From: Rhizophagus irregularis | Taxonomy: Eukaryota | Direction of reading: 5' to 3' | DNA length: 64,000 bases | Assembly (NCBI RefSeq): GCF_026210795.1 | Contig: NC_089432.1 | Location: 3,968,001 to 4,032,000, forward strand | Shown: positions 11,724 through 56,752 of the stretch, piece by piece | Layout of the letters: every line of letters starts with the position of its first letter | Position numbering within the stretch: position 1 is the stretch's first letter | Made by a program: the position numbers and the translations under genes | Notes under the pieces: generated by a model | What the model was told of the DNA's origin: nothing | The model's database searches: none | Seen by the model: only the letters and a program-made list of their open reading frames with translations

Positions 11724-11739
11724 TATCCTAGATTATAGT

Positions 11740-11928: not shown

Positions 11929-14385
11929 ATTTTATTATTTCTTATATCGCTTTTACATTCTAGCTATATCTTTAAGCCTTTCTTGATATTTGTATTTTTG
12001 TGCTAATATACTTTTTATTACCACAATATAATCTAATTACCACACACATATAATCTAAATACCACGCTATTCTTCTTGTTTCTAAGTCATTTATTTGTTA
12101 AATTATACAATGGAGTTCTTGACCTTCTGTAGTTATTTGGATACCTGGTTTATATCGAGTACTGTGCCTCCTGCACCTGATTGGGTGCTGGATTTTATAT
12201 TGGAGTACTTACCTTTGCGCCTATTTGGTTGCCTTTCTAGATGTTGAAAAAAAGTGACGGGTGGCGCAGTAAATTTGCATTTAATTTCGGCTGACACTAT
12301 GCTATAATTCCGGCTGATCTTTTGGGCATGTGATTTGAGGATCCAGCCTGGCGCCATGGAACTATCGTGGAACTGGCAGGGAACTGTCATGGAACTGGTG
12401 AAGAACTGGCAGGAAGCTAGAGTGGTTCTATTAATTCACCAGTTTCAGATCACTTATATTGCCAGCTTGGATGCCAAGTTCTTATGCCCAAAGATCTGGT
12501 CAAAATTGTGAAATAGTGTTGGCCGAAATTAAGCGAATCTATACTGCGCCTTACTGCGCCATAGTCACGTGATACTGTTCCGGTGACAGAACACCCTCAC
12601 ATAGTTACGGGCTAGTGACGGGGATGTTCTGGGAAAGTTTCTGGAACCCAATATATATGCATCTGTGCCACATATTTTTTGTATCCATATATTTCCGAAA
12701 TCTTCCTAACACTCTCGAGCTCCAGTCTGGTGGACAGTTGGTTAGTAGAGAATTGGAGGTACAATATGTATTATCTTGGCCTGACCCATTTGATTACCAA
12801 AAAGTGCGCCATCATGCAACCTAATTATTGTCAGTACATGTATGCCTATTTCATGTCCAAAGTTGAAGATGCGATATGTATTATTGTGGCTGGCCCATCT
12901 ATACCATACCCGAATACATATCTAGAAAGATGAAGGCTTCTGCCAATATTTATATAATAGATTACGCAGTTACCTTCACTTTTAGATGTATATCCACTTG
13001 CCTTTCTTTTTCGATTCTTTATCTAAGTTTGCTATCGCTTCTTTTTTTCGCGTATTTGTCTATCCTAGATGTCATATATGTCCGAGCACATACTAGTGTT
13101 AGGGTAGCCTTCTGCCAATATTTTATATAATGATTACGCAGAAGGCTACCCTATAAAGAATGTATTTATTTGTGTCTCCGAAGTGTCCAAGAGGGGCCAG
13201 CCAACTTCGTATCTCTTTTTGGTATACCTCTATATTACGCGGAGGCTATACCATATCTGAGTACATATCTAGGAAGATGGGGGCTTCTTCCAATATTTTA
13301 TATAATAATTCCGAAGTTATCCCATCTAAAAGTATATACCCGTTTCCCTTTTATTTACGATTTGCTTACTGGGTTGCTATACGCCTCTTTTTACATCCTA
13401 TTAACAATGCTAAGGTGAAGGCTTCTGCCAATTTTTATATAATAGATTACGCAGAAGCCTTCACTTTTAGATATATATCCGGTTGCCTTTCTTTTTCGAT
13501 TCGTTTAATAAGTTCACTATCGTTTCTTTTTGCATCCACCGAAAAAAATAAATTAAACATTTCCGAATTTTATAAAGTAATATAAACATTTTCGAACTAA
13601 CACCATGCATACACCAACTAGTTTCGACCAAACCGATCACTCTGGCCCTCTCGTTTACTTCAACGGCGCCAGTCCCGATGAATATTTAAGTGATTCAAGC
13701 AGTTGTACTGATAATAAATCCGACTTGGGGTCAGATGATTATAATGACAATGAGTCTAATTATGAGTCGAATAATGAAGAAGCTACCGGTACCTCAACCG
13801 ACATTACCACGACTCCATCATTTCAGTACTCTTTAAGGCAGGAAAAGTTTAATGATAAATTTTCTTCTAAGGATTTGCTAAATGCCATTCGGAGGATTTT
13901 CTCATCACCACCTAGAGATATGTCAGATGAAAAAGGCTCATTGGAAGATCTCCCAATCTATTCATTCCTCTTTCCGAATGAAAAAGGGTCTAGTTTATAT
14001 AACGCTTACGATCGGGGTGAAGTGGAAAATAAATTGGTTATCAAAATCGACCAAGATGGTGATCATGCCCCCAAATTTTCCGTTGCAGATGACATTTCAG
14101 AAGTATATGGTTTACCCGGGATTCATGAATGTATTAATAGACAAAAGCCTTTAAGAGCTGTGATTGATATCGATGCGTCGCAAAAAGATATGGAAACAGC
14201 TGATGTCAAGGGGCAAGAAGTGTTCATTCGAATCTGTTGCTCTTTCATAAGAGCTTTGTACCGAATTCTTGACTGTGGTTGGGAAGACATTCTCAAAGGG
14301 TTAATAGTTACTACATCATCAGATTCTAGCAAATGTAGTTATCATATCTTATATGCACCGGCTCTCCTTATCGATCACCAAGAGC

Positions 14386-17300: not shown

Positions 17301-18880
17301 ACTGATGACATGATAACACGTGCATTGGAATTAAAACAAGTAATATTAGTTTTATTATTTAAATTTTTTTAAAAAATTATTAAATTTCTAATTAATAATT
17401 AATTATACAGCCTCTTCATAATACCGCATCAGCTGATAAAGATTTAAGAAAGTATATACTTTCAGAAGAGGAATGGAATTGTATTTTAGAAGTACATGAG
17501 ATATTGCAGGTTAGTTATTTATTGATTAATAATATACACGAAAAATAATAAAAAAAATATTTTCAAGAAATTAAATCTTTTTTTATCTTTTTATTTACAG
17601 TGTTTTAAAAAGAGTACTAATTTTAGCACTGGACAGCAATATCCAACGTTATCGTATAGTGTTCCTATATACAACTATTTGCTAGATAAGCTTGAAGACG
17701 AGTATGAAAAAAAGGAAAGTGAAAAAGGCGAAGAGAATGAAGTTGTAGTAGCATTAAATGAATCAATCGAAAAAATAAAACAATATTATGCATTTACAGG
17801 TGCATTAGTTTATACAGTAGCAACAGGCAAGTTTATCATTATCATTATGTCTAATTTTATGATATTTAAATATTAAATTTATTTCTTATAATTTATTACT
17901 AAATAGTGATGGATCCTCGCCTTAAACTTCAATATTATAGGGATAATAAATGGGAGGAATCCTTTATTCAAGAAGCCAAAAAACAAGTTGTTGAATTATG
18001 GAAGTCAACGTATAAAGTAAATAGTGCAGATAATGAAGAATCACATGATGATGATGATGAAATTTTCGGTCATATATTTAAGAAACGGAAATTAAATAAT
18101 GATGAATTAAGTATATACTTAGATGAAAAAATAATTCCCGGAAAAACAGATATTCTTGCATGGTGGAAGGTATATAAATAATATTATTTATTATATTATT
18201 ATTTTATATTATTAATGTTATTAAATTAATTTTTATAGGCGCACGAAGTGGAGTACCCGAATTTGTCTAAAATGGCGCGTGATTACTTATCTATTCCAGG
18301 TTAATATATATATATATATCAAAATAGTAAATTACCGATCAATAAACTATTATTAATTATTTTATTTATATAATTTATTATTTTTATAGCCACTAGTGCA
18401 CCTGTAGAGCGAATTTTCTCAGGTGGCACCGATTTAGTTGTTCAAAAACGTTGTAGTCTTAAAGATGAATCAATTCAAAAAGTAATGTGTCTTAAAGGAT
18501 GGTGGAAATCGGGTTTTGGTGGAATAACTATTGTAAATGATTAATATAAAAGTAAAATTATATCTATTGTTAGTTTGATTATTAAATGTTAAATTTTAAA
18601 TAATAAATAATAAAATAATAAAATAAACAATATTTTATATCAAATTTTAGTAATTTAAAATCGAGCCAGCTCGAGCTATTTAAGCCAAGCTTATTATTGG
18701 CTCGAGCTTTTTTGAACTGATTTATTACCGGCTTGAGCTTTTTGAGCTGAGCCTATTACCGGCTTGAGCTCTTTTCAAGCTGGCTCGTGAGCTACGAGCC
18801 AATTTAATTATGGCTCAGTTCGGCTCAGCTTGAAAAGCTTGAGCCAGCTCACAAGCCAGCTCGGCTCATGCGGAGCTTTA
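14386..18880 (+). mobile_element. hAT DNA transposon nested in the primase-helicase gene
   Basis: TIRs TAAAGCTCCGCATGAGCC / GGCTCATGCGGAGCTTTA; 8-bp TSD CCAAGAGC (14378-14385, 18881-18888); subterminal GAGCC/GAGCT repeats. Confidence 0.95.
15919..18544 (+). CDS. Multi-exon hAT transposase with BED zinc finger
   Basis: CNYC..LWRHVNKHH, DAWTS, CDNASN, RCLAHVINL, DVSTRWNST, DPRLK, WWK..YPNLSKMARDYLSIP, ATSAPVERIFS; GT-AG introns between ORF pieces. Confidence 0.9.
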
Positions 18881-21800
18881 CCAAGAGCTTAAATCATTCA
18901 CCGAATTAGTATATACCTTAACTGGGGAAAAATTTGGCAAGTTTATTGATCAGAATCTATCTGGTCATAATTTTAACCTTCGCCTTATTGGTTCGGCAAA
19001 AAAAGGTCACGTGAAACGAATTCTTCAGTTTTCACTAGATAATGGGTGGAATGAACTCGATCACGTTAGAGTCCAACCACCTACTAACTTAGGCCTCGAA
19101 GTAAGACCCCGGCTACTTAGTGAAGAAAAAAATAACAACCCACTAAGGATAATTGTAAGTCAGGATGTATTACAAAAATGCGCGAACTTAGTTTTGCAAA
19201 AGCATTTTAACTATCTTAGGAATTGGACTATCGAAGAAAAGGATTCACAATACTTCGTATATTTTAACCGGAAAGCTTCACTAGAATGTCCACTATGTAA
19301 ACATATACATGACAAGGATCAGCGGTGGTTCGGACATGTATCTGCTAGTGGTACATTTATTGTGAAATGTTTTCGGCAAAATAGTGATGAACCTGGGGAA
19401 GTTTTTGAATGCGACCCATCTATTGCGGAAAAAATTCAGCAAAAAAATAAAAATATATCTTCGGCGCCTAGCAAGATAAAAGGCTTAGGTTTTCCTAAAG
19501 CCTTCTTAAAATTCCCATCTTGGGTTAAGTATAATGAGCCCCTTTCAGCGACAGAAATATATGACGAGAGATATGTAAGACCATTACCGGATGAAGGTGA
19601 TATCTATGTAGGATCGCCTTGGGAGACGGGAAAAACATATGTTCTCGAGCATCTTACTATATCTGACGATGTGAATTTGCTAGTATTATCTACGCGCCAC
19701 TCTTACTCGAATGCCGTCACTACAAGACTCAATCTCAAATCATATTGCGATATCGATAGTAATATAAATCTACCTGATCATAAGAGGGTAGTATGTCAGA
19801 TAGAAAGTTTACACCGTATTACTAATAATTGCAAATGTAATAAAAAATGTAAATGTTCTCCAAGCCAATATGATTTATGGCTTGATGAAATAGTATCTAT
19901 AATTGCTCAGGCACAAGGTCATTTGGCGGGTCAATCAATAGAGAAACTATATAAATTAATCCAAGAGGCTAGGCGTATTATCGTCATGGATAATGATCTT
20001 ACTGATCTAAATATCGAATGGATTAAGGCCCTTCGCAAGGATAAACTATTCTCAGTTATCCACAATACTTATCAACCACAGGAAGGGAAAACATTCCGCC
20101 TAGCCTCTAATAAAGAAACTGTGTTAGCCGAACTTTGGGATTGGGCTAGGAGAATATCTTCACTACCTTCTGATAAACGAACAAGTGCATCACTCATCTG
20201 TCATCTCAGAAAGGATGTGCAAGGGATCGTTCGTGCTCTCAAGACCGATTTTCCGGAATTGAGGATCAAAGAATATCATGGTAAATCTGATCCAGAAGAA
20301 AAGGCTAACGACTTCAGTAACGTAGAAGAATCATGGAGCAATGTTGATCTAGGTGCGTATACAAGTACTTTAAAAATAGGAGTATCTTGCACTAATCCCA
20401 AGTTCGAACGGGCGTTCTGCATCTTTAACAGTTATATAGAAACGAACGCTGGAACGAATCAGATGCTATTCCACATGCGGTGCATTAAAGATTATATATG
20501 CCATATCGAACAAAGATCTTCTAACGTCCCCATTACAGAAGATGGGTTATTTCGATGGTTGTTGAATGCTAAACGTGAATGCCTCCCCCGAGAACTCCAG
20601 AATAGAGGAATATTCCCAGATGTAGATTCTATTATCCGGAATAAGGACGTACCAACTGTTCGATTATGGGTGGCATTCATGTTGGAAAAATTCCGTTCCC
20701 GAAGATTATTTGGTTGGAGGATGGTTGATTTTCTCCGAAATGCAGGTATGGTAATTTCTATCATAGAACTTATGCCTAAACCTAAAGATAATACGATATC
20801 ATTATCCCAGACAGTAAGGGTGAGTTCATCTATCATTAAAGCAGAAGAAATCTCAGATATATCAAATGCCCGTATTCTTGATCATGAGATAGCTGAGGTT
20901 TTGGAAAATAAGCCGAAGAAGACTTTAGAGGAAATGCAATCTTTAGACCGGCATCATATTGTAGAATGTTATGAGATTCCGCCTGAATCATTGACCGAAG
21001 AATTCATATCGAAGTATGGGAATTATAATCATATGAAATGGTTTAGAGCTTATAGACAGTTACGGGACGCTGGCACTGATAATGAAACGGCTGTTGAGGC
21101 TATTACCCGTAAAGATTACAGAGAGGATAGACTCGCAACCGTGACCCGAGCTGAGAGACATAGTATCTGCTTGGAGTTGCTAAGAAATTGTACACCCGCT
21201 AAAGACGTTGACGATAGAGCACGATATAAAGCTGATGATGTTAGAACGCGCATGAACTCTCCTAAATCGATATTATATCTCCAGGATTTAGTACCCAAAA
21301 TGGCTCGAGTATTTGATAATACAGATGCATCGCGCAGAGCTAAAAAATCGGGATTGAAAACAGATCGGGCAAAACTTGGTTTATTAAATGCATCACTTTA
21401 CGCAACTTATGGATTAAAATTTAAGGCTATAGATAAGAATTGTAGACATTACCACCTAGTAGGTTCATTTGATAGTAAAGATGCTCCTAGATTACCTTCA
21501 TATCAAACGGGCGAAGAAATTTATTGGGTAAATGGTGAAGATACTCGGTATGGGTATAGTAAACTCCCACCCGATGAATTGATATTAGATAATTTTACTA
21601 GCTCTAGCAAAGTGGATAATACGCAAAATACAGAAGATATTCAGGACTTATTTGATATATGCTAATACCATTCGATTACGTATCAGGTAAGTGAAGGCTT
21701 CTGCCATTTTTATATAATATAATTCCGCAGAAGCCTTCATTTTTCGGCATATATTATTAAAAAAATATCTCTAACTTTGCGTCACTCTGGCCAGGATATA

Positions 21801-22969: not shown

Positions 22970-23294
22970 ATATTACTATAACATTTTGGTCTTAGATCAT
23001 TCATAGCCTTGGAATGGGGGTTCCATGACTATGTATTTTTTTTCGCATATCCTATCTACCCGCAATTTTCAAATGTTTGCAGAGAAAACCCGGCCATAGT
23101 GGGTGGATTCACGTAGTGAACACTCAGCATAAGCTATATTATTATTTTTCGCTCCTCCAATCCTCCGATAGCTTTCACCGACCATGAGGTAGTGAAATGG
23201 GGGAATATTTTTTTCGAATTGAACTTTATCCCACTTAATATAATCTGAATACCACAGATTATCTAACTACTACATATAATCTACATACCACATA

Positions 23295-24443
23295 ATGTCT
23301 GCAATTACAACCAAGTTCGTTACAGACCACCAGCTTACCAATGAGATGAGTATCGAAGAGCTCAGTCAGTATGCGCCAGAAATGCGTGACCTCTTGGGAG
23401 ACGATAGAGAGAAAAGGCGCCAGGCCCGTAATCGTCTTCAAAAAGGGTATAAATTTAGCAAAGAACAGGCATTTGCATTGATTCCTGACCAGAGAAATGG
23501 GCGGTATATAAGTCAAGTACCGATCCTAGAGGAATTAGGATTAGCGCCTTCAGAAGCTGAAGTTAATATAAGCCTAGTATCTGAGAATACCCCAGAAGGG
23601 GAGACTATTAAAGAAATAGCTCAGCGCATTGTTCGGGATAATCTTAGTGAAAGAAATGTAAAAACGATATCAAGAACCTTAGTCGAAACGGCCTCTGATC
23701 CTATCATTGCCTCATCACGACTCTCCAGGCTTCAAAGAGAATTGCGGAAGCTTAACACCTCGGAGGCGATAATCTCTGCCACCAAGATTTCGGAGATAAC
23801 CAGAGCATCTAATAAAATCCAACAGAAGCGTACTGAGCAACGTAAAAATGAAGGACTCCATTATCCAGACCACTTCTCGTTAGAATCGGTTAAGGAACGG
23901 CTAGATTTATATGTTGTGTCTAACACACCCGATAAACAGGCCCTAGCTGATGTAATGATTATGCTCTGTATCCGCCCTACTGAAATTAAAAACTTGCGCA
24001 TAGCAAATGGGGGCGTAACGGGATACGCAAAAAACCGAGGCCAACAGGATGTTCCTCGGGTGTTCAGATCGCTGGAAAAAAATGAGGAGCGAGCAAGGCA
24101 ATTGCTTACATGGATTCAGGAAGCAATTTCTTCCAGACAGTTAAGAGATCCAGGAAAACCTGGATCGACATACTTAAGTTCGTTTCTGAAAAAAGAAGAA
24201 TATATTCCTAAACCTTATGAGCCATTACTCCCTAGTTCCTTGCGCAAATTAGGGGCGGTATTTGCTTTGGTAGTCCATGGGCCTAAAAATCCGTCAAAAG
24301 CCAATACTTATGCCAGTGAAGCCCTTCGACATTCGCCGAATAACCATGCTTCTCCATCTGATAGATATACTATAGTTAATTTCAGAAGGAGGGGGCAACC
24401 TTATGATCAAGCAAAACCATTCTGGATTTCTGATGAAAACTAA
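23295..24443 (+). CDS. Tyrosine recombinase / telomere resolvase (protelomerase)-like protein
   Basis: Candidate catalytic residues in YR order: MLCIRPTEI (R), GYAKNRG (K), PSSLRKLGAVFA (R), EALRH (H), SDRY (Y); intact 382-aa ORF. Confidence 0.65.
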   Translation: MSAITTKFVTDHQLTNEMSIEELSQYAPEMRDLLGDDREKRRQARNRLQKGYKFSKEQAFALIPDQRNGRYISQVPILEELGLAPSEAEVNISLVSENTPEGETIKEIAQRIVRDNLSERNVKTISRTLVETASDPIIASSRLSRLQRELRKLNTSEAIISATKISEITRASNKIQQKRTEQRKNEGLHYPDHFSLESVKERLDLYVVSNTPDKQALADVMIMLCIRPTEIKNLRIANGGVTGYAKNRGQQDVPRVFRSLEKNEERARQLLTWIQEAISSRQLRDPGKPGSTYLSSFLKKEEYIPKPYEPLLPSSLRKLGAVFALVVHGPKNPSKANTYASEALRHSPNNHASPSDRYTIVNFRRRGQPYDQAKPFWISDEN

Positions 24444-25437: not shown

Positions 25438-25474
25438 GGCTAATTAGCTATCCGATAAATGCCAGTCCAGAGCG

Positions 25475-25975
25475 ATGATAGAGGTTTATTTTTTATATTT
25501 GGATATTATATATGCCATAATAAAAATGGTATTCGTGAATTGTGTAGTCGAAGAAAATATTCCTATTGAGGCATCAATTGATACGAGCGCCAATGTAAAT
25601 TGCATTAGCCAAAAACATATTGGTGAATTAGGAATTACATATCACAGTGAAAGCAATCGTATTGAGACTCCGGATGCATCCTATTCTACATTAGGAAAGG
25701 TTGATCTGCATATCGGCTTTAATGATAGCAAGAAACATAAAAGCACACCCGTTGAATTCATAGTTCTTGGACTGGAGTGGTCGGGACCTGATTTAATTTT
25801 AGGAGGACCTTGGTTTCAAGAAAATGGTGCAACTTTGGATATATGCAACTCAAATCTATTATTTGACAATAATTTTGCGATCCCATTCAAAGAAGTAGAC
25901 TATATTTCGACATTATCTGATAGTCAAATCCGAGCTATGACGGATTTTCCCAGTCCAACCTATAGTCCGGAGTGA
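25475..25975 (+). CDS. Retropepsin-like aspartyl protease (second copy; likely start at MVFVN)
   Basis: ASIDTSANVNCIS and DLILGGPWF motifs. Confidence 0.75.
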   Translation: MIEVYFLYLDIIYAIIKMVFVNCVVEENIPIEASIDTSANVNCISQKHIGELGITYHSESNRIETPDASYSTLGKVDLHIGFNDSKKHKSTPVEFIVLGLEWSGPDLILGGPWFQENGATLDICNSNLLFDNNFAIPFKEVDYISTLSDSQIRAMTDFPSPTYSPE

Positions 25976-26037
25976 TCGTGTATTACTAGCCTTATTTTTT
26001 TCTGATCGAAAGGTATTCTAACTATATAAATAAAGCA

Positions 26038-26463
26038 ATGCATACAGACAATTTACTTGATCTTCTTCCGCCGGAGATAATATCATTTATTCTAAAGTAT
26101 CTTCCAGAACAGGAACTAAAGAATTCTCGCAGTATAAATAATATATGGGAAAGAGAGGCGAATCTTGAATGGCACAAAAGGATGGAATTTTTATTTGGGA
26201 GAATAGTTCAAGGCAATTATACAGTAAAGGAATATTATTCGAAACTGAAAGAGTGTAATTTAAGCAAAGACTATCCAGAATGGCTTTTTAAAAATCTATT
26301 CATCAGAGGATTATCACCTGAGAATAAATTTAAAGTTCGTTTGGATGGGCTATTACTACTTTCGTTAGATGAGATAGTGGATGGACAATTAGTACTTTCG
26401 TTAGATGAGATAGTGAAAAGGCTTAGTTCGGAGCAGGCCGAAGGTGCTTTGCATGATCATTAA
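26038..26463 (+). CDS. F-box protein fused to a Gag capsid-like (MHR-region) segment
   Basis: [23 protein letters not shown] (F-box) followed by [30 protein letters not shown], which aligns with the element's Gag. Confidence 0.75.
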
Positions 26464-26510
26464 GCTTAGAGAATTTATTTTTTCGATTAAAGATACAGCA
26501 TATATTATTC

Positions 26511-27593
26511 ATGGCATATTCAAGTATTTTTAATATACCAGAACTATTAGAGCAGGTTCTATATTTCCTAGCAGTAAATAAGACATTGTATCCTGCCCTA
26601 TTTGTTTGCCGGCTTTGGTACAGATGCGGTGGTCCTATTTTATGGAGACGCATTGAGCTAAAGGGGAACGAAGTAGACGATAGATCTCGATTGGAAAGAT
26701 TTTTTAAAATAGTACGTGGAGGAGGAAGACCAGTTTATAGCTCAAAACTAACTCATCTCAAAATATCGGACTATCATTCACTTTCAAATAAAAAAATCAA
26801 AGGCATTATGCATACTTTCCAAAATATAATACATTTAGATTTTGGAGGGAGTATGAAGCCTGAGTCTATTGGTAAAGTTCTAAAGCTAATAGCAGAATCA
26901 TACCCGAATTTGAAGTATCTTAATATATCCGCTTTATGCAGTGGATTTGGAAATGATAAAGGCCTATGTGCAATCGCGAATTCATGTTATAAAATAGAAT
27001 GTCTAAATATTTCTAGACGTACAGAGTTTTCTGAAACATCAATTTGTAATGTTATTCGTTCTTGCCCAAGGCTCCAGCAACTCGACCTTAGCTTTTGTCA
27101 TATTACCGATATAACTATCAAAGAAATTACTGGTTCATGTGTTAATTTAAAGTACCTCAATTTGGAAGGGTGTAATAATATTAGCAAAGAAGCCGTAGAT
27201 CAGCTCATTTCACTTAATCCAAATATTCATGTCGAGAATTTTGTGCCGATTCGGGTACCTCCCCAAAATAATGGAGCTTTAGATGTAATCCATGGACTTG
27301 CAAGGCAACTGGGAATACCACATGATGAGCCAAGAGATGTTGCATCCTTAAATAATTTTATCAATGACGAATTATCAAGGAGATTGAGTGAACGCTGTAT
27401 TCTAGCTAGAACATCGCTCCGGAGTGGTGGTCGGTTATATAACACCCGGCATAGTGTTAATAATAATCAGAATTCGGTCATATCTCAGATACACCGGCAA
27501 CCTAACAGACGATCGCCAAGGATTAATTTCGGTAGAATACTAGCCGATCAATTAGAATGGTGGTACTCTACCGATCTAACTAATCTGGAGTAG
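26511..27593 (+). CDS. F-box/LRR (RNI-like) protein carrying a Gag-derived segment
   Basis: [17 protein letters not shown]; LRRs ([27 protein letters not shown]); [33 protein letters not shown]. Confidence 0.8.
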
Positions 27594-39621: not shown

Positions 39622-41122
<1,501 letters not shown>

Positions 41123-41146: not shown

Positions 41147-42817
<1,671 letters not shown>

Positions 42818-42866
42818 TCTCAAGGTAGGATTATTATGATGGTACTATAAATTAGGATGAAATACC

Positions 42867-45337
42867 ATGTTTGATCCGGCATATTCACAGCTTTTAGATA
42901 CGAATCAGGAACTTCGTAGTGAGCTTCAAGATGAGATTTTTATTAATAAGAGCAATGAGAAAAAAGTTTGCTCTCTCGTGAAGGAGCTTGAGCAATGTTA
43001 TCGAACTATCTCATTACAGGATAATACTATCATAGCCCACGAAAAAGAGATAGAGAAACTTAAATCAGAAATATCTGACTTGCGAAAACAGCTTAGGGTT
43101 TTACAACAGGATAAAAAATTCAAAGATGAGGTTGGGTCTATTCAAGATGGTCGAATCATAGAACTCGAAAATAAGGTTAGGAGTCTTAAAGCAAGAATCC
43201 GGATTCTCATAGATAAAAAAATCTCAATAAATGCTTTAGATATGGCAACGACTAATCTTATTGCAAACGTTAATAGAGGACTAGAGCGGATAGAAAATCA
43301 TATTAGAGGTGTTGGTACGCCTATGCAGAATCCTGCTAATGTTATAGATGGTATTAGAGGTTCGTTAAATACTATTCGGGTTACTTTGCAAAATATTACG
43401 GCTGAGCGTGATCAGTACCAGAACATATTAAATGATACGAATAACTGGGAACGGGATCTTGGAAATCAGTTAAGAGATAGTAGAAATCAGAATTTACGGT
43501 TACAACGTTTATTAGATGAATCCCGAGTTCAAGTTGAAAGAACTGTGAGAGAAAGGGACAATGCTCAAGGAGAGCGGAACTTGGCTATGCTGGCCTATAA
43601 TAATGAAAGACAAGAATCCAGGCGCTGGATGTTTTCATATCGAGATAAAGATAGGCATATCCAGGAACTATTGCGGGAAAAATTTGCTAAACAACTATTA
43701 TATCGGCGAGATACTAACCGTCTTCAGCAAAATACCCAACAGTTGCAGACTAATGCCCAAAATCAGGTAAATAGGATGTTAGTCATTATAGCGAGAAAGC
43801 AAACCCGTATCGGTGAATTACTACGTGAAAAGTTTGTTTTCCAGCTAGTGAATGGGCAAAGAGATCAGAATATTTTAAATTTGCAAGGACAAATTTTGGC
43901 GCTTCAGAATAACCCACCTAATATACAACATATAGGTATGGCAGGATATCCGCCTCCAAAATTTCATGGTTTAGCTGGTGAAGATCCAGCAGATTATATA
44001 AGAGATTTGCGTCAATGGTGTGAAGCTTCACCTAACCACGATCCGAATGCAGGTCATCAACACCGAATTCGTATTGATGGACTCTTTGAATCAGGTTTAA
44101 AAGATTATGCAAGAGATTGGTATGAAACTGAGATAAAGGGAAGAAACTGGGAATTGCACAATATTAGCGATAATACTGGTCTTGCAAATATTGGTGCCAT
44201 TAATGGTCTGGCTAATAATAATGCATTGCGTGCTATTAATGCTAATCAGTTTCGGGGTGGAGCTCTTCATATAAGAAATACTGTACCGGCTGATAATAAT
44301 GCGATTGCCAATCCAATAGTACCTGGACATACTGTTTGGGAAGAGGACTGGTCTATATCAGGTGGTCGCCCGACACTTTTAGCTCCAAATGCACCAAATG
44401 CTAATGCGGGTGTAATGTTATAGTTCTTGGAATGTTTGTTGGACAGAAGATACATACCTTTTTACATGACTTTCCAACGGTTACTGCTGAAAAATCTAAA
44501 GTTAAATTTCAGTCGCTTGTTCAAGGTAATGATCCTGTAGGGCGATTCTATACTAACTTAAAGAGAATGGTTAAATTAGCATACCCTTTACTTCCTGCTA
44601 TAAATCAAGATGAATTAGTTAAACAACAATTTTTTCATGGTCTTAAGCCTGATAACCAAATAGAAGTAAGACGAATCGGCTTAGAGACTCCTCTTCCTGC
44701 ATTAATTAAGAAATTAGAGGAAATTGAGAGATATAGCGCCCAGCAAATTCTTGGAACGACTCTGCATCAACCGTCACATAAAACCAATTCTCAAGGATCT
44801 TCTTCGGCTGAGATTGATAAGTTAAAATCTGAAATAGCCTCCCTACGAACCCAACTAGCTCAACCGGCTCAAGTACACCCTCAGAATAATGAGGCCTTAG
44901 AAAAGATGTATATACGTGCAGTACGTTTGGGAATGTCACCTGATGCACCAAGAGATCTTACATCCTTAGATAATTATATTAATGACGAATTAATACGGAG
45001 ATTGGGTGTTGCTAATGCCAACTATGCTAAGCTTTCCAAACAAATTAATGTGGTCAAAAAGTTACATAAAAGTGGCTGTAAACCTGCCCGTAAAACTTCT
45101 AAAACAAAGAAAAAAAAATCAAAAAATAAGTCTAAGAAGAAAAAATCCAAAAGTGGTCGAGACCATACAGCTAGAGTAGACGAACAATCGGATTCAGATT
45201 CTTCCGATAATGATACTTTTTCGTCGGAGTCTGAGGATAGTTCTTCTAGCTCTGAGAGTTCATCTTCTGAATCAGAGTCTGAGGCTGAGGCTGATGCTGA
45301 AATTAATGTTAATATATCTCGGGTAAAAAAAAAGTGA
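42867..45337 (+). pseudogene. Coiled-coil plus retrotransposon-Gag-like polyprotein (frameshift at ~44412)
   Basis: PPKFHGLAGEDPADYIRDL, L...ARDWY, FQSLVQGNDPVGRFYTNLKR, QQFFHGL; Lys-rich then Ser/acidic tail; adding one base in GGTGTAAT joins ORFs 42867-44423 and 44432-45337. Confidence 0.75.
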
Positions 45338-45566
45338 AGAAAGGACATAGTCCTATTACCTCCTCACAGAAGAAGAAATCAAAAACTCGCAAGTCTCGTA
45401 AGGTAAAAGATGCGGAAACAACCGGTCCCTTTGGGATCCCCCTTTAGCAGATCCTTCTGGGATCGCATCAGTTCCTATTTTCAAGAAGGAAAAGCAAAGT
45501 TCAAAGTCCCCACCACAGGACGAACAATCCCGCTTAGAAAAAATCATTGAGAAAATTATTGAGAAG

Positions 45567-46208
45567 GTGCTTAATGAAAAGTTTGGTACTATCACGGCCC
45601 TCCTTCACTCACAGAACGATAATTCTAAAACACTGGCCGATTCTGAAGAGGATGAATTCATTGATGTTCCTATGGAGATAGATTTTGTACAGAGAAAAGA
45701 TCCCGCCACAGATGTTGCCACTGTTAAATGTAGAATTAAGCGTCTAGTGATTCCGGCAGGTACAGTTGATCCTGGTGCTAATTTTCCAATCATGTCTGAG
45801 GATATAGCCAAACGATCAAAGCTAGAAATTGATACAAAAGAAAAACATGATCTCAGAGGCATTGCTACTACTCCTACAGAGTCGCTTGGAATTGTTAGGA
45901 ATGTTCCAGTAAATTTCGCTCCTAGATGTACTATATACGCCGATTTTGCAGTCGTCAAGTATCCTAAGCTGATGCTTATTTTACCCAACACATTGCTTGA
46001 TAAATATAACTATGATTTACTTGCATCGAAGCGAGAATTAAGACTAGAATGTAATGGCAAGGAATTTTTTATCCCAATTAATATGCATAAGGTCAAGAAC
46101 AAGCTTGAGGTGAATTGTGCGACCACTATTCCCGAATGTGATGATTCCTCGACCCCAGACAAAATTTCGCAGGACTTAATCGAAGATGGTACATTTAAAA
46201 AAAAGTGA
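45567..46208 (+). CDS. Retropepsin-like aspartyl protease downstream of Gag
   Basis: GTVDPGANFPIMS, LRGIA...SLG, DFAVV...LILPNTLL. Confidence 0.75.
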   Translation: MLNEKFGTITALLHSQNDNSKTLADSEEDEFIDVPMEIDFVQRKDPATDVATVKCRIKRLVIPAGTVDPGANFPIMSEDIAKRSKLEIDTKEKHDLRGIATTPTESLGIVRNVPVNFAPRCTIYADFAVVKYPKLMLILPNTLLDKYNYDLLASKRELRLECNGKEFFIPINMHKVKNKLEVNCATTIPECDDSSTPDKISQDLIEDGTFKKK

Positions 46209-46321
46209 GTTATGAGGAGCTTGAAAAAATGCTATATAGCACTCTTAAGTCTAAAGAAAATCTTAACGGACTATATGAGGAGTTGTTATCACGCTATATC
46301 GAACTAAATGAAAAACATCTT

Positions 46322-46776
46322 TTACATGGCTAGTATCCTATTTATTCCTTCTGTGACTTTTTCACCTCTCTTATCTTCTTTCTCATAAAATGCTCCTAAT
46401 TCCTCATTGCTTATATTTAAACTTTTTGAACTTATTGAAGCTAGTGGTGTCTGAATAACAGGTGACTCAGAGATGTGAACAGATTTAGACTTAGTTTTTT
46501 TTCCTCCGGTCTTTTTCACCTTATACCCAAAACAACATTGCATTCTACAGGGTCTGCTTGCTGATACGTATCAGGTTCTTCTGAAAATGGCTTTATATCT
46601 TTAGGATCTATTTGTGGATGGACTCCTCTCCAAATTTGATATACCCGTCGTGTTGATATTTTGTATTTATTAGCCATGGCTTCTGATGCCCGTTTCATTG
46701 AATTTTTGGCTTTAATAATATCCTGAATATCTTCAGAAGATAGACGGGTTGCATCTGAGCGCAAATACCTAATCAT
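46322..46776 (-). pseudogene. Small helix-turn-helix DNA-binding protein (two overlapping ORFs, probable frameshift)
   Basis: RLSSEDIQDI...AMANKYKISTRRVYQIWRG. Confidence 0.6.
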
Positions 46777-48652: not shown

Positions 48653-51600
48653 TTATCTTTTTTTGTCATCCTGTAACTTTGATAACGTTCGATAGCGTGT
48701 GATTTCTAGACCAACCACTTTGTACCATGTGTTTCGGAAACCTGCTAGTAGCTTACACTCATCCAAATAATATGATGTTAAATATTGTTCTAAGGACATT
48801 GCTCGCTTCTTAGTAACTAATTTATACATACTTTCTCTATACCCTATATCAACCTCGGAAATTTCTTTAAGCAATGATGAAAGTTTTAAGCGGATAGATT
48901 CTTCTTGCTTATCTAGCACATTGAGGAAGGATTGGTAATAATCATTGTTAGTCAGGTGTTCTCCCTTGTCGGCATAAGTAGTATCAAATAATTTTTTCGC
49001 GTAAATGCGTGCCCCTTCCCATAAATGAGAAATGATGGTTTTATCTTTTTTCGGACCATCACGTAGGTTTTTGATATACCCCCTAATCCATTTTTCAGCC
49101 GATTTCTGCGCTAAGGTATCTCTTATTTTTGATACCTCATCCCCATCCATTTCGTCTTCTTCCTCTTCATCTTCGTCCAGGTCGTCTTCATCCACTCTAC
49201 TGTCATCCGCTTTATTTTCACCCACTTTATTACCATCTTTTAACTTTTTTAAGGCTTCCAGCACAATTTCAGATGATGGCTGGTGTCTATCATCATAGTT
49301 TATAAATCGCGCACAGAGCCCGACAACACTTTTCAGATAATAGTTAATATCGATCTTTTTATCAAGATGTCTTGCCACTTCTGGGTACTCCATTTTGTCA
49401 CCTACCTTCTGTGATGAATCATTCTCAACTACAACATATTCAAACCGCTCGCCTGGCTCTGGGATTTCATAAAGATAAGCCTTGGGTGTTAGACCCTTTT
49501 TTATGAGCCGTTTGGCGTCCGCTTCTTCACGGGTATGTCTATCCCGCATTCGTGAAATGAAGCGCTGTACACTCTTGTTATTTTTATCGGGCCTCCACAC
49601 AGCAGTTTTTATTATTTCATTAAGATTTGTCTGCGAAATATCCTTTACAGTCTCTTTGAGCACGTCCTCTACAACCTGATGCAAGGTACGTGTATTGTTT
49701 ACCCTCGTAGACTCTTCCATAATACGTTTTCCTATTTTGCGGAAAATGCCAGACTGACCCCGTTTTACAGTCTCAATTCCCCGAATGAAAAGCTCTTTAT
49801 TAAAATTTGGCTCACTCTCATGTGGAATGCTGTAGTATTTTTTCTTTCCAGTAAATACTACCGGAAATAAAACTTCCTCATATGCCATTTTAAGATACGA
49901 CGATCCATTATCTTTTTTAAAAAAGTCATTAACTTCGTCGCGGAGTTTCTCCATCTCTTCCATAGAGATTTTTACCATTCTAGACCAATATTCTTCTTTC
50001 GAGATCCCACCATTACCGCTGTCATATGCCTCATCGCATTCTTGAAAGTACCTTTCTGGAGGAACTAGATACAATGAATCAGTATCACCATATTTTATCT
50101 GAAAATCCCTACTTTTAACGAAATTTGCGACAAGTTTGATATTTCTCTGTCCAGCTGATGTGATGCCCCCAGCCAGTGCTCGCAAGAAGAAGGGAGATTT
50201 ACTATCCCCAGCGGTGCCATAAAATGTATTCATGTACACCTTAAGAGCATTTTGTTTCGCATCTAAGCAAGAATAAACAAAACAAACTGAATCATATTCT
50301 GTCATGAATTCATGCTTTTCTTTATTAATAAAATGGTATAGATTTTTGTTAAGGCTGGCACGTTTTTTCTCCCCCGCTTTTGCTAAAATGTGCTCAATTG
50401 CTTCTGGTAGTGACAAATCTTTACCCATTAAACCTATTACCAGTTCCATATCTTCCTTTTTTTCTTTCACAGGGGCAAGGCGTTCCTTTATCTCATTCCG
50501 TTTGATAGATAAATATTCCAATATAGTAACGTAGAGACCCTTTTCTTCAGGAGTGTTATTATGCCTTATAGACCATGCGAGACAATCCTGATTATTGAAT
50601 TTAAAACTAATTTCGTGGAGTTTTTTACCACTTTGTTCAGCACGCTCTTAAGATAAAATGATTTTATCAGGCGAGAGGTTGTATGTCATGATAAGGCTTG
50701 GATATAAAGATCTGAAGTCTAAGCCAGTTACAGGACGTTTATTTTCGAGCCCCTTTATTGGTGGGAAGACGTAGGCACCCGGGAATGATTCTGTTTCCGT
50801 TCGTTCTGAAATTGTACTGGTTAAAATCCCTTCCCGCCATGCACTAGCACTTAAAAGATTGCTCACTTTCATTCCTATTGCAAAATAATGCGCATCAAAT
50901 AACGATATAAATGCTATGCTCGCAACCTCCCTGTACTCATTAATTACATTGTGCTTAATCATTAACCGCTGGCAACTAAGAGCGTCAATGATACAATATT
51001 CGGCTATTTCGCGCATTTGTTCAGCCGTTGTGGCATCAGCCTCTTTTAGTGCATTTCTGTAATACTTGAACATGCGGTTGAAAGGCATATCCAATTTACT
51101 TTCGAGCCCACATTCGTTTAGGTAGAATGCTAAACTACTCTTTTCGGCCTTAGAATAAAATTTCATAAAGCAAGGTCGGACATCGATAGCTACGCATCCT
51201 GGGATTTTGAGATGCTTTGAATGAAATGGTATATCATTAACCTTTATTGCGTTATATTGGTATTGCCATTTTGTAATTTTTTCGAGGCTTGAATACTTTA
51301 ATGACATTTGATTGAACACCCATTCGAGAACCCCTAATTTTTTCGCCTTCTCCACAATAAATCTCCAATCATATTGTGAATCATTAAAACCTATGTGTAT
51401 ATCTGGAGCTAAAAGCTTCCAACATAGTGCAAAAGCCTTTAGTAAATTAGTCTGGGATCCACATACGATTGTAATCCATCGCGGATCTGGCGCTGTTTCA
51501 ATATCGACAAGACAGATTTGTTTTAACGGTTCGGGATCATCTTTCCAATGAACTGTCATACAAATCATAAATACGTTAGATTCATCGCTCTGCGCAGTAG

Positions 51601-52410
51601 GGAATTTACCTAAACCAAGCGAACTATATGTCTCTATATCCCATGTGAGAACAAGAGTTCGATCCCGTGAAAGGGTCGAGGAGAATAATGGATTATTATA
51701 ATCGTCCTCACTTGTTGGATTGTAATTATTCACAGAAACTTGGAAGAGATAAGTACCCCTTGAATATATTCGTGGAAATAATTACTTAACGTTGCCCAAC
51801 TTGAAAGAGGTAATCTTTTTTCACGGGCTACTTTGCGGTAATAATATATTGGGGTTAGATCATCAGAAGCTGTACAGATACTGACTTCACGAACTGCCTT
51901 TAACATATTATACCGGTCAAATTGATTCCAAGTAATAACACGTATATATGATTTTTTCTCTGTATAATATCCTTGAAGTGGGAAAGCACTAATATTCTCG
52001 ATCCCAAATTTTGATGTACCTTTGAGAGTATTGGATAATATATTTACTAATCTGGTCTTAAACGTAGATAGGGACATCTCTTCAGGTACTTCGACATCAA
52101 AGAAAAGCTTAATGCCTGTAATTTTTACGACTGCTTTTTGTCCATTAATCAAAGTACCAGTAATACGCAAAATATAGGAGGAGACACCATTTACATATTC
52201 GGAGGTATCATCACTAACTTCAGTAGGCATGAAATGTATGGGTTGCTTGTCGGATAGGCTTTGTTGGAGTATAGCAGTCATCCCATTATCATATTCTGCT
52301 ACAATCTCATTACGTGATAGAACACCGGCTAAGGGGCCAGTGTCATCGTAGCGGAGGGCTGGGGCGGTTCCGGAGCGATCGGTTTGGTCGAAACTAGTTG
52401 GTGTATGCAT
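48653..52410 (-). pseudogene. polB: Family B DNA polymerase, RNA-primed type, asfarvirus/NCLDV-like (~1250 aa; one frameshift, one nonsense)
   Basis: ExoI WDIETYS, ExoII GFNDSQYDW, ExoIII YCIIDA, GLDFRSLYPSLIMTYNLSPD, KQNALKVYMNTFYG, YGDTDSL, KKKYY; frameshift in the G-run ~51757-51760; in-frame TAA at 50650-50648. Confidence 0.93.
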
Positions 52411-52879
52411 GGTGTTAGTTCGAAAATGTTTATATTACTTTATAAAATTCGGAAATGTTTAATTTATTTTTTTCGGTGGATGCAAAAAGAAATGATAGTG
52501 AACTTATTAAATGAATCGAAAAAGAAAGGCAACCGGATATATATCTAAAAGTGAAGGCTTCTGCGTAATCTATTATATAAAAATTGGCAGAAGCCTTCAC
52601 CTTAGCATTGTTAATAGGATGTAAAAAGAGGCGTATAGCAACCCAGTAAGCAAATCGTAAATAAAAGGGAAACGGGTATATACTTTTAGATGGGGGTAAC
52701 TTCGGAATTATTATATAAAATATTGGAAGAAGCCCCCATCTTCCTAGATATGTACTCAGATATGGTATAGCCTCCACGTAATATAGAGGTATACCAAAAA
52801 GAGATACGAAGTTGGCTGGCCCCTCTTGGACACTTCGGAGACACAAATAAATACATTCTTTATAGGGTAGCCTTCTGCG

Positions 52880-55283
52880 TAGGGTTGGTAAAATAACCGT
52901 TAGTTATGAATTTGGTTAATTAACCGGTTAATTAACGGTTAGTTAACGGTTAATTAACCCATAAATAACCTGTATATATAATTTTAAGGAAGTTAAAATA
53001 AATTTATAATTTATTAAATATTATAAAATTTTAATATATTTTATTTATTCTTCATCATCTAAATTAATAACATTTGCTTCAAATCCAAATATACTATCAT
53101 TATCAGAACTATTATTATTATCATCTTCTTTATTTTCATTATCAGAACTATTATTACTATCTTCTTCATTTTCATTAAAATTACTAATCTGTTTCTTTTT
53201 TTGTATTTTTACAAGTCTATTACACATTCGAAGATTTCCATAAATATAAACTAATTTTTTAACACGTTCATTTTTCAATCTATTTCGAATTTTATTATGA
53301 ATAAAACCAAAAGTAGAAAAATTTCTTTCTGCAGCTGCAGAAGATGTAGGAATTGAGAGAATTTTAATAGCCAGTTGTTGAAGTTTACTAGTTGGCCATG
53401 ATTGCCACCATAAAGATGAATTAAGAATATTAGCAGATTTCCAAATAATTTCATTATCATAAGGTGAATTTTTATTACGAAAATTTACCAATTCAGCAAA
53501 TAATTCTACTGCTTCTTCCTGATTAAATCTTTTATTTACAAATGTTGTAAATTCTACATAACCAATAGATTCAACTTCATCATTTTTACTTTTTTCCAAA
53601 AATTGTGGATCTAACATATAAGCTGTTATCATAATAGGATGATAAGTATATTCCCATCGCTTTGCAATAAGTTCTTGAAGTTTATCAGAAAAATTACAAT
53701 CTATTTGATTAATTTGATTCATTACTTCTTTGAAATATGAATAAACATTTGAAAGAATTGAAATATCTGATTCAAATAACTTTAATGCTGAAACCATTGG
53801 TTCCATAATTTTTGTTATTATATCTAAATCTTCCCAAAACTCATCTGATAAAATATGAGCTCTTAAAGTTAAATCCATATTTTGACGAATTCTTATATCC
53901 ATTAAAGCCTGTTCAAGTGCTGTTCTTGAATTTTGAAGTGATTGAAAACAAGCAAGATGTATTCCCCATCTTGTAAGTGCTGGTAAAACCAATGCAATTT
54001 CTTTAGAATAATTTTCTTTTTGAATACGTTTCAATTTAGCTGTTGCCTGTACATGTGCCTTAAAATAATTGACCAACTTTTTTGCATTTTCAACAACAGA
54101 TTTAATTTGATCAATCTTTAAAATATCACTAATTAAAAGATTCATTACATGAGAATTACATCCTAAACAAACAATACTTGGATAACTATCTTCAATAATT
54201 CGCCAAGCTGCTTTCATTACACTAGCTGTATCTGTAATAACTGCTAAAAATTTATTAATACCAACAATTTCCATTTGTTTAATAATTTCATCTGCAACCC
54301 ATTTAGCTGTATGAGATTCTTCACCAGAATAAATAGCATCAAAGAATAATGGTTTTGGAGTACAAATAACAAAATTTTGAACTGATTCTCGATTAATATT
54401 AGACCAACCATCTGAAACCATTGTAAGAGATTTAGCTTGTAAAATTTGTTCATTACATTCAGCTTTAACTTCATCAAAAACATCATCAAGTAATTCATCA
54501 GCAAGTTTTCTTCGATTAGGTAATTTGAATGCTGGACGTAATTGTTGAAAAAACTGAATAACATAATTATTTTCAAGAAAAGAAAAAGGAACTCCAGCAG
54601 CAAATAATGCTTGAGCTAGTAAAATTTCAAGAGTATCTTGTTCTTCTTCACTCATACGATCAACAAAATTCTCAATTGTTGTATTTTTTAAATGCTTTTT
54701 TGATGTTTTTACTGTAGGAATAAAAGTAGAAGTAGTAGCATCAGAAGTTTCTAATAGTTCAGGAATTTGTTGTTTCTTTGTTTTTGCACTTTCTGGAGCT
54801 CTAGGACAACTATCATTAAGATGAACTTGCATTCTTTTAGCTGTACCTTGTTCAAAAACTTTAGAACAATAATTACAACGTACAGAAGGATGTGTTTTTT
54901 TTTTTTTTCTTAGACCTACTACTTTCTTCATTACTTTCTGCTTCAGTAATTATTGTCCAATGTTTCCAAACAGTTCCCTTTTTTTTTACCATGATAATGA
55001 ACAATAAATTTGCAAAAAAAAGTGTTTTTTTAAAAAAAATTTATCTTAAAAAAAAGATCATGCAATATGTAGATCATAGATTTAATCAATATTTATATTA
55101 ATTAATATTTAATTGTGTAACAAAATAATGGATTATCATTTAATCACATGATTTAAATTCTGCATTTTGATTGGCTAATTATAAATAACGGTTAATTAAC
55201 CATTTTAAATCAATCATAACTAACAAAATTAACGGTTAATTAACCATGGTTAATTAACCGTGGTTAATTAACCCCCATCCCTA
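52880..55283 (-). mobile_element. hAT DNA transposon nested in the right TIR
   Basis: Ends TAGGGTTGG.. / ..CCATCCCTA; 8-bp TSD CTTCTGCG (52872-52879, 55284-55291); GGTTAATTAACC subterminal palindromes; empty site present in the left TIR at ~13137-13144. Confidence 0.95.
53045..54992 (-). CDS. Intronless hAT transposase (BED finger, DUF659-like core, dimerisation domain); frameshift in an A14 run near the 5' end
   Basis: MVKKKGTVWKHW.. then VRCNYC..MQVHL, SDGWSN, ITDTASVM, CNSHVMNL, TRW, LDP, PTSSAAAERNFS. Confidence 0.9.
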
Positions 55284-56703
55284 CTTCTGCGTAATCATTA
55301 TATAAAATATTGGCAGAAGGCTACCCTAACACTAGTATGTGCTCGGGCATATATGACATCTAGGATAGACAAATACGCGAAAAAAAGAAGCGATAGCAAA
55401 CTTAGATGGAGAATCGAAAAAGAAAGGCAAGTGGATATACATCTAAAAGTGAAGGTAACTGCGTAATCTATTATATAAATATTGGCAGAAGCCTTCATCT
55501 TTCTAGATATGTACTCGGGTATGGTATAGATGGGCCAGCCACAATAATACATATCGCATCTTCAACTTCGGACATGAAATAGGCATACATGTACTGACAA
55601 TAATTAGGTTGCATGATGGCGCACTTTTTGGTAATCAAATGGGTCAGGCCAAGATAATACATATTGTACCTCCAATTCTCTACTAACCAACTGTCCACCA
55701 GACTGGAGCTCGAGAGTGTTAGGAAGATTTCGGAAATATATGGATACAAAAAATATGTGGCACAGATGCATATATATTGGGTTCCAGAAACTTTCCCAGA
55801 ACATCCCCGTCACTAGCCCGTAACTATGTGAGGGTGTTCTGTCACCGGAACAGTATCACGTGACTATGGCGCAGTAAGGCGCAGTATAGATTCGCTTAAT
55901 TTCGGCCAACACTATTCCACAATTTTGACCAGATCTTTGGGCATGTAACTTGGCATCCAAGCTGGCAATATAAGTGATCTGAAACTGGTGAATTAATAGA
56001 ACCACTCTAGCTTCCTGCCAGTTCCTCACCAGTTCCATGACAGTTCCCTGCCAGTTCCACGATAGTTCCATGGCGCCAGGCTGGATCCTCAAATCACATG
56101 CCCAAAAGATCAGCCGGAATTATAGCATAGTGTCAGCCGAAATTAAATGCAAATTTACTGCGCCACCCGTCACTTTTTTTCAACATCTAGAAAGGCAACC
56201 AAATAGGCGCAAAGGTAAGTACTCCAATATAGAATCCAGCACCCAATCAGGCGCAGGAGGCACAGTACTCGATATAAACCAGGTATCCAAATAACTACAG
56301 AAGGTCAAGAACTCCATTGTATAATTTAACAAATAAATGACTTAGAAACAAGAAGAATAGCGTGGTATTTAGATTATATGTGTGTGGTAATTAGATTATA
56401 TTGTGGTAATAAAAAGTATATTAGCACAAAAATACGAATATCAAGAAAGGCTTAAAGATATAGCTAGAATGTAAAAGCGATATAAGAAATAATAAAATGT
56501 TAGATTATATGTAGTATTTAGACCACATCATTTAGATCATATGTGGTAATTAGATTACATTATTTAGATCATATGTGGTATTCAGATTATATGTGATATT
56601 TAGATCATATGAGGTATTCAGATTATATGTGTTAATTAGATCATATGCGGTATTTAGATTATATGTGGTATTTAGATTACATGTGATACTATAATCTAGG
56701 ATA

Positions 56704-56752
56704 AGTGGGATACCACATGCAATATAATTTATATTGCATGTGGTATCCCACT
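56704..56752. repeat. Right terminal 49-bp palindrome (hairpin)
   Basis: AGTGGGATACCACATGCAATATAA-T-TTATATTGCATGTGGTATCCCACT. Confidence 0.95.

Follow-up and report, generated by a model that had tools for sequence, protein, structure and literature searches.

We analysed a stretch of 64,000 nucleotides from Rhizophagus irregularis (assembly GCF_026210795.1, contig NC_089432.1, positions 3,968,001 to 4,032,000, forward strand), hereafter the window, from whose first letter coordinates are counted. It contains genes for a Gag-like protein and a retropepsin (gag-pro), which stand head-to-head with an integrase gene and beside a gene for a DNA-packaging ATPase. They lie within an element of 45,078 bp (window 11675-56752) with the anatomy of a Polinton-related DNA transposon, namely terminal inverted repeats (TIRs) and a 5-bp target-site duplication (TSD). 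Gag consists of a coiled coil of ~350 aa followed by a capsid (CA) domain, and is split near 44410 into two open reading frames (ORFs), 42861-44423 and 44405-45337. The retropepsin ORF (45402-46208) matches Pfam Asp_protease below the cut-off (E 0.004) and the family profile at E 5e-64. An initial annotation of the sequence had described this Gag with a coiled-coil N-terminus, the retropepsin and the integrase some 50 bp away, with the ATPase nearby, and the description held: 49 nt separate the gag ATG (42867, plus strand) from the integrase ATG (42817, minus strand), and Pfam recognizes the integrase and the ATPase (Table 1).

In the atlas, the CA domain of natural in-frame relatives scores 0.92 against the Retrotrans_gag/Ty3_capsid clusters, and because about 100-116 of 256 atlas features are in common, CA can be regarded as a distant relative of these families. 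Pfam Retrotrans_gag matches 10 of 20 CA family members (best E 4e-6), and the top PDB sequence match is the C-terminal domain (CTD) of PEG10 CA (7lga; E 0.12 and 0.04). AlphaFold2 modelling of the CA of locus L018, which is 89-92% identical to the window CA, used 39 sequences and gave a pLDDT of 81.5 and a pTM of 0.69. In the model, three helices are followed by an insert of ~95 aa and a long fourth helix, after which comes a four-helix CTD; we take this to be the layout of Ty3 and Arc. Both the sequence features and the modelled helix layout, a check that the initial annotation had proposed, predict a Ty3-type CA in Gag. Moreover, a CCHC knuckle is present in 31 of 57 CA-bearing relatives of at least 550 aa.

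With the CA profile, 511 of the 50%-identity representatives matched at E 0.001, and 150 of these were listed. All Gag and protease relatives with a taxon name come from Glomeromycota (Rhizophagus, Glomus, Paraglomus, Cetraspora and Entrophospora). Scans of viral contigs with gag, integrase, the CA alignments A3 and A4, a family B DNA polymerase of the protein-primed kind (pPolB) and ATPase, and a scan of prokaryote genomes, returned no relative, which is weak evidence in both cases. A divergent clade of the CA family (P0160, P0165, P0167, P0170, P0228 and others) starts at CA, has no coiled coil and ends in KKK; its gene models show the protease alone after CA.

Loci were taken as the best 80 of 135 stretches confirmed in a metagenome scan; 31 of the 80 reach the gag start and the remaining 49 stop short of it. 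In 26 of these 31, divergent relatives included, integrase and gag stand head-to-head. The module is therefore syntenic in divergent relatives; its absence from most copies, which the initial annotation had named as damaging to its proposal, did not emerge. The spacer between the two genes measures 49-60 nt in most close relatives and 10 nt in the pPolB lineage. The ATPase gene follows the integrase gene in L008, L010 and L024. A different neighbour, a polymerase of 1334 aa, follows the integrase in L038-L041; it is split in L041 and incomplete in L039 and L040. It scores 0.97 against the PF03175 and Endonuclease_7 clusters of the atlas and is thus a Polinton pPolB. The family B DNA polymerase (PolB) of the window belongs to PF00136/PF03104, and 8ywg, presumably the polymerase of African swine fever virus, is its top PDB match (E 3e-103, against E 8e-10 for the next family). 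Since the integrase of the window shares only 45% identity with that of L038 and window-type and pPolB-type CAs fall into one clade (SH-aLRT 97, in a tree of 40 CAs hand-chosen from 92 full-length ones), a single integrase-gag-pro cassette is, to judge from the sequences, joined to two unrelated replication systems.

Both gag and pro are under purifying selection, as the initial annotation's proposal implied. Nei-Gojobori ratios of nonsynonymous to synonymous substitution rates (dN/dS) in hand-picked pairs, several distant ones near saturation, were 0.11-0.38 for CA (13 pairs), 0.04-0.31 for the protease (five), 0.15-0.39 for the coiled coil (five) and 0.12-0.35 for the integrase (six). Coiled coils 83-94% identical to that of the window precede either a window-type CA (type A) or a second type, B, found in 16 of 35 such proteins. 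Type A and type B align marginally (hhalign E 0.005), and type B, which matched neither Pfam nor the type A profile, is called CA by position and layout only. The head-to-head loci comprise 18 with type A, seven with type B and one of undetermined type. Furthermore, L001 and L008 have near-identical integrases and CAs that are ~36% identical. Such mosaics indicate that the parts recombine while some gag is retained beside the integrase. Two further observations concern these loci. L039 (6509-7321) and L042 (5250-6062), of the pPolB lineage, carry an ORF without a Pfam match that we take to be TBP-like from a motif; in L040 (4305-8678) the protease gene is shortened and followed by unrelated DNA that includes a Plavaka transposase, so that L040 is likely a rearranged copy.

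The initial annotation had seen no long terminal repeat (LTR), reverse transcriptase (RT) or RNase H near gag-pro, and none emerged here. We compared 104 ORFs with Pfam (37 plus 67; 103 from the window and one from a locus) and 19 ORFs with PHROGs (14 from the window), and found no match to an RT, RNase H, capsid or adenain family. An RT motif is absent 3' of pro in all nine loci (93-4373 nt covered), and YxDD occurs in none of 57 long proteins. Among longer fused forms, two CA relatives (1064 and 1098 aa) and 26 protease relatives (530-1096 aa) have no Pfam RT listed, and those screened lack YxDD, although such negatives are weak evidence. The flanks of gag-pro contain no LTR-like repeat, and the best match between them covers 35 nt (80%, E 0.13).

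Gag ends at an A-run. In 15 sequences with the junction, L071 included, the protease lies in the -1 frame in nine, the +1 frame in three and the Gag frame in three, and this relation tracks the length of the run (A8-A11). At a second A-run, 3' of the protease, a -1 frame opens in eight of nine sequences; six encode a C2H2-like finger (Pfam E 0.0025, below the cut-off), and this small zinc-finger tail occupies the position expected for RT. Splicing at the gag end was considered and rejected: in the window lineage the A-run is followed by a GT that L038-type loci lack, and contigs show no joint there.

The copy in the window is defective and could be mobile only if other copies supply proteins. 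Contigs from runs X1 and X7 span the stop at integrase codon 23, and contigs from runs X1, X7 and X17, the last possibly an RNA run, span the gag frameshift near 44410, each with 0 differences, and both are real. The break ahead of the protease, at 45437, probably stems from misassembly of the window, since contigs of X1 and X7 have one base more at this point. In X1 and X7 the contigs are deeper over the core than over the flank, though depth does not measure copy number. The catalytic D-T/S-G is present in 36 of 57 family protease rows (DTG in 32, DSG in four), and DPG, the motif of the window, in six of 57. The integrase stop, the real gag frameshift, the DPG motif and a polymerase that is RNA-primed rather than protein-primed all go beyond the initial annotation.

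Table 1. Features of the element, in window coordinates
Feature	Position	Strand	Basis or remark
Left TSD copy, ATGTT, 5 bp	11670..11674	.	Right copy 56753-56757; from sequence
Left TIR, ~2 kb, starts AGT, holds 18-bp minisatellite	11675..13645	+	Sequence comparison
Primase-like ORF and UL9/origin-binding SF2 helicase, split by hAT	13581..21665	+	Herpes_ori_bp E 3e-16; phrog_4913 E 5e-17
Nested hAT splitting the primase-helicase gene	~14420-18840		zf-BED (Pfam) and transposase-like exons
Tyrosine-recombinase-like ORF	23280..24443	+	No Pfam or PHROG match
Second gag-pro-derived cluster: retropepsin (DTSA), F-box::CA CTD fusion, F-box/LRR::Gag tail segment fusion	25448..27593	+	
A32/FtsK-HerA packaging-type ATPase, frame intact	40343..41122	-	Pox_A32 PF04665 E 1.2e-6; Walker A visible
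rve integrase, D/D/E present, C-terminal nuclease-like domain	41150..42817	-	PF00665 E 1e-9
Divergent spacer, 49 nt, TATAAAT box	42818..42866	.	Sequence
Gag N-terminal coiled coil, ~350 aa	42867..43919	+	dN/dS 0.15-0.39
Gag CA, Ty3/PEG10-like, ~95-aa insert in N-terminal domain, frameshift ~44410	43920..44761	+	Profiles, predicted structure
Gag tail: basic K-rich stretch, acidic S/E/D stretch, ends in A-run slippery site and TGA	44762..45337	+	
Linker and retropepsin, -1 frame relative to Gag, motif DPG	45325..46208	+	dN/dS 0.16 vs L018
Second A-run slippery site and short -1-frame tail	46196..46333	+	C2H2-like finger in six relatives
RNA-primed PolB, asfarvirus-like, three broken pieces	48653..52434	-	Pfam DNA_pol_B and exonuclease
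Right TIR, split by hAT transposon	52370..56752	-	Sequence comparison, Pfam
Nested hAT in right TIR	52880-55283		8-bp TSD CTTCTGCG

Both ends of the element are real, since the right junction is crossed by a contig of X1 and sequence of the left flank turns up as a loose end in X7. The long TIRs agree at 1952 of 1970 aligned bases (99.1%), the termini read AGT...ACT and have the 5'-AG ends of Polintons, and the ATGTT on both sides falls within the 5-6 bp of Polinton TSDs. A Polinton-type A32-like ATPase and rve integrase are likewise present in the window, the latter with its stop. The window PolB is RNA-primed and not of the protein-primed Polinton type, and no double jelly-roll major capsid protein (MCP), penton or adenain was matched in Pfam or PHROGs, although such family scans could miss a very divergent protein. 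The element is Polinton-like in its working, yet its PolB is not protein-primed and no jelly-roll gene was matched in it, and it is no LTR retrotransposon. Beyond the TIR, at window 10104-10638, lies a fold-back element with 183-nt arms that are 94% complementary, spaced by 15 nt, and with 11-bp subrepeats.

Pfam matches in the element comprise the UL9-type helicase, the A32 ATPase, the rve integrase, the RNA-primed PolB, two retropepsin-like ORFs, F-box/LRR genes and two Crinkler-like genes. We take the ORF preceding the helicase to be primase-like from motifs alone; the helicase had no PDB match in a sequence search. The inner ends of the TIRs (13581-13645 and 51730-52434) share a start codon and the first codons MHTPTSFDQTD, and because the primase-helicase and PolB genes thus begin in identical repeats, a common promoter is likely. 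PolB is the only part of the element shown to be asfar-like, and no Pfam match to asfarvirus or Nucleocytoviricota MCP, RNA polymerase, capping enzyme or VLTF3 was found in it. The integrase C-terminus (41150-41700) comprises a zinc finger and a nuclease-like domain (PHROG HNH/homing endonuclease, E 1e-14); the pPolB-lineage integrase is shorter and has no such domain. Another ORF is tyrosine-recombinase-like, a label given on catalytic motifs only; three copies of the 18-bp TIR repeat lie directly 5' of it (23238-23294), and the two are possibly a resolvase and its binding sites. In the second gag-derived cluster, CA and protease profiles match at E 3e-11 (25990-26460) and E 2e-6 (25448-25972), and the DNA repeat D12 reaches 72% over 145 nt; the cluster could provide a ubiquitin-ligase adaptor that targets Gag lattices. 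The cargo includes two genes with Crinkler N-terminal domains (28859-30329; Pfam E 6e-9 and 3e-22). Just 3' of gag-pro, ORF 46935-47999 encodes a coiled-coil protein of 354 aa whose C-terminal part has a hydrophobic segment; it is a candidate for a membrane or envelope-like protein.

Taken together, we favour, at about an even balance of probability, a reading in which gag-pro is a conserved and selected core module of Polinton-related DNA transposons from arbuscular mycorrhizal fungi, with the Gag of intact copies forming a Ty3-type shell that carries DNA and integrase in place of a jelly-roll capsid. We favour a shell for the element DNA because a virion-like gag-pro layout has been kept, the jelly-roll module is absent and RNA, if packaged, would lead nowhere in an element lacking RT. 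Integrase and gag would be co-expressed from the short divergent spacer, with Gag as the major product and with Gag-Pro and Gag-Pro-tail made through slippage on the two A-runs. The element would replicate as linear DNA using the PolB it encodes, which is protein-primed in the L038 lineage and, in the window, asfar-like and accompanied by a primase-helicase. Gag would then co-assemble around this DNA through its basic/CCHC tail with no motor-driven filling, the particle would travel between nuclei of the coenocytic hypha, and the integrase would insert the element with a 5-bp duplication. Filling by a motor is less likely than co-assembly because of the element size, a protease and a knuckle that are degenerate in the window lineage, and an ATPase that was not seen to accompany Gag everywhere. 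Of the initial annotation's idea that DNA may be packaged in a Gag shell matured by the retropepsin, the module itself stands; ATPase-driven packaging and retropepsin maturation are weakened by the partial pPolB contigs, in which no ATPase was seen, and by the degenerate protease motif.

Several observations weigh against a DNA-filled Gag shell. A dsDNA of 45 kb far exceeds the capacity of a Ty3 particle. The PEG10 sequence matches are weak by themselves, and the sister clade (A4 profile) ranks PEG10 fourth, with HAUS2 above it. The window Gag has lost the CCHC knuckle, and in its lineage D-T/S-G is replaced by DPG and LLG by ILP; because of this motif and the missing second glycine motif the protease may be inactive there, which makes proteolytic maturation doubtful in that lineage. 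Only nine of the 15 gag-pro junctions have the -1 frame. No stimulatory hairpin was found at the A-run junctions (z -1.5 to +0.6), for which reason we can only infer that Gag and Pro are joined by ribosomal frameshifting or transcriptional slippage at the A-runs. X20, the only run examined that is on record as RNA, gave short low-depth contigs. As for synteny, the loci are not independent: several are near-identical, and 15 integrases reduce to about six groups. Five of the 31 loci (L051, L054, L060, L061 and L071) have no integrase upstream; L054 and L071 offer less than ~100 nt of sequence upstream of gag, and L060 and L061 are still in element context because their upstream ORF is the one located beyond the ATPase in L008 and L010. 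No ATPase was seen in the partial pPolB-lineage contigs L038-L042. Finally, the missing MCP reported by Zhao et al. carries little weight, as A32 was missed there and is present in the window.

The rival that survives best, though we consider it unlikely, makes Gag a core gene that does not enclose DNA and forms a cytoplasmic scaffold or RNA particle, which would shield transcripts or replication intermediates from silencing or target the integration complex. It would suit the RNA binding that is usual for Ty3-type CA with CCHC knuckles, the very variable element size (~11-12 kb in recorded Glomus Polintons versus 45 kb), and a protease and knuckle that have degenerated in the window lineage though purifying selection persists. 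However, packaged RNA cannot regenerate the element without RT, the conserved gag-pro layout has slippery junctions of the kind that set particle stoichiometry in retroelements, and the recorded Glomus Polintons are without the jelly-roll module.

Gag-based blocking has precedents in Ty1 p22 and Fv1, and Gag might accordingly be a weapon, a dominant-negative or decoy capsid directed against LTR retrotransposons or rival elements. We consider this improbable: no RT-bearing element with this CA family was found as a target among the relatives searched, and a decoy needs neither an intact protease motif (36 of 57 rows) nor the tight divergent link to the integrase, even if the F-box::CA CTD fusion (25990-26460) on the same element and the two barely alignable CA types behind one coiled coil (type B in 16 of 35) would fit such a role.

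Highly improbable is a particle formed by a jelly-roll capsid protein of high divergence, whose gene would be one of the unannotated ORFs or would act in trans, and filled by the A32 ATPase, with Gag as an accessory fibre or scaffold. The ATPase is indeed intact in the window and follows the integrase in the three loci mentioned, and several ORFs of 230-350 aa have no family match, in scans that miss divergent MCPs. However, two of the unannotated ORFs near the module (39418 and 46935) match coiled-coil types only, the ATPase has not appeared in partial pPolB contigs, and the three Glomus Polinton entries tabulated by Krupovic et al. include no MCP or penton.

That gag-pro is a relic of an independently inserted LTR retrotransposon is scarcely credible, for although the window copy holds two nested hAT insertions and a frameshifted gag, neither LTRs nor a TSD surround gag-pro (the remnants the initial annotation had said would tell against it), the integrase start is no more than 10-60 nt away in most relatives, and the arrangement recurs in 26 of 31 loci and two polymerase lineages under purifying selection with RT never found; on that synteny we rejected independent insertion.

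Extending the favoured reading of a Gag shell around element DNA, we propose more tentatively, and as somewhat less than an even prospect, that these elements are RT-less dsDNA viruses or transposons whose jelly-roll virion was exchanged for a Gag shell. A portable integrase-gag-pro module for integration and packaging would serve two unrelated replisomes (the Polinton pPolB, and an asfarvirus-derived PolB with primase-helicase), would spread 12-45 kb with F-box and Crinkler-like cargo between mycorrhizal nuclei, and would be the source of the dispersed asfar-like polB copies. If true, a DNA-replicating element with a Gag capsid would be a chimera of two viral realms, and a CA lattice would be able to enclose large dsDNA. 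It would also explain the missing capsid genes of the Glomus Polintons and the many asfar-like polB genes of R. irregularis without other giant-virus genes, and would provide a route for DNA movement between nuclei in mycorrhizal fungi.

Among the closest known systems are the Glomus/Rhizophagus Polintons (Polinton-1_GI, P_Gi1.1 and P_Gi1.2). Their entries in Table S1 of Krupovic et al. 2014 (PMC4028283) record no MCP, penton or adenain, and an ATPase in one of the three. They share with the window element the TIRs, the rve integrase, the host group and the missing capsid genes, and differ from it: they measure 11-12 kb, whereas the window element reaches 45 kb and encodes an RNA-primed, asfar-like PolB and a primase-helicase besides cargo genes. 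The passages and table rows consulted on them in PMC4028283 make no mention of gag-pro. L038-L042, with pPolB, integrase and gag-pro, may be this recorded type, compared by description only.

A Gag with retropepsin on a Polinton-type PolB element already appears in a figure legend. The legend of Fig. 5 in Starrett et al. 2021 (PMC8502044) describes a Matrix/Capsid/NC/Pro element with similarity to retroviral Gag and retropepsin, a TBP-like gene and an adintovirus-like pPolB; section 3.4 of that paper is silent on it. Judged from the legend, it may well belong to the pPolB lineage, in which gag-pro and a TBP-like ORF also occur together in L039 and L042. The legend contains no analysis of synteny, selection, frameshift or structure, and its PolB is adintovirus-like and not the asfar-like form. 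The combination that the initial annotation did not know from described DNA elements is thus partly anticipated, and it is the 45-kb asfar-PolB form that is apparently undescribed. A full-text literature search, judged by titles and abstracts and with subscription papers and Repbase outside its scope, yielded no description of the integrase-gag-pro cassette or of this form. In the parts consulted, a 2026 preprint (10.64898/2026.06.19.733378) groups the A32 ATPases of Glomus and Rhizophagus with Polintons and nowhere uses the word gag, PMC11296320 has nothing on gag, and a search for the term in PMC3671162 gave no match.

Asfar-like PolB has been reported in R. irregularis (PMC5294986, PMC7017919, PMC10640383). 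According to the portions of Zhao et al. 2023 (PMC10640383) concerned with polB, there are 15-33 copies per genome at strain-variable positions, and neither MCP nor A32 was found in five R. irregularis genomes. The dispersed polB genes, attributed to 'fundsbetaviruses' in the relevant part of Gong et al. 2020 (PMC7017919), are asfar-like as in the window, and we infer that the window PolB is one of them. In those passages such copies are read as traces of repeated giant-virus infection; they would be explicable as a transposon family, because the window PolB lies within an integrase element bounded by TIRs and TSD.

The family shares with Ty3/gypsy elements (Metaviridae) and with PEG10/Arc the two-domain helical CA, predicted here, the CCHC knuckle and a retropepsin past a slippery junction. 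Unlike Ty3/gypsy, the element has no RT, RNase H or LTR, and it has a 350-aa coiled coil, an insert of ~95 aa in the CA N-terminal domain and a separate, divergent integrase gene. Caulimoviridae carry dsDNA in a Gag-derived capsid with an aspartic protease, and they package RNA and reverse-transcribe it. By contrast, the present element encodes a DNA polymerase as well as an integrase and lacks RT. To our knowledge, capsids of the Gag type have been described only in elements whose packaged nucleic acid is RNA that they then reverse-transcribe; natural alleles with intact Gag and protease exist in related loci, and a Gag shown to package DNA would make this element categorically new.

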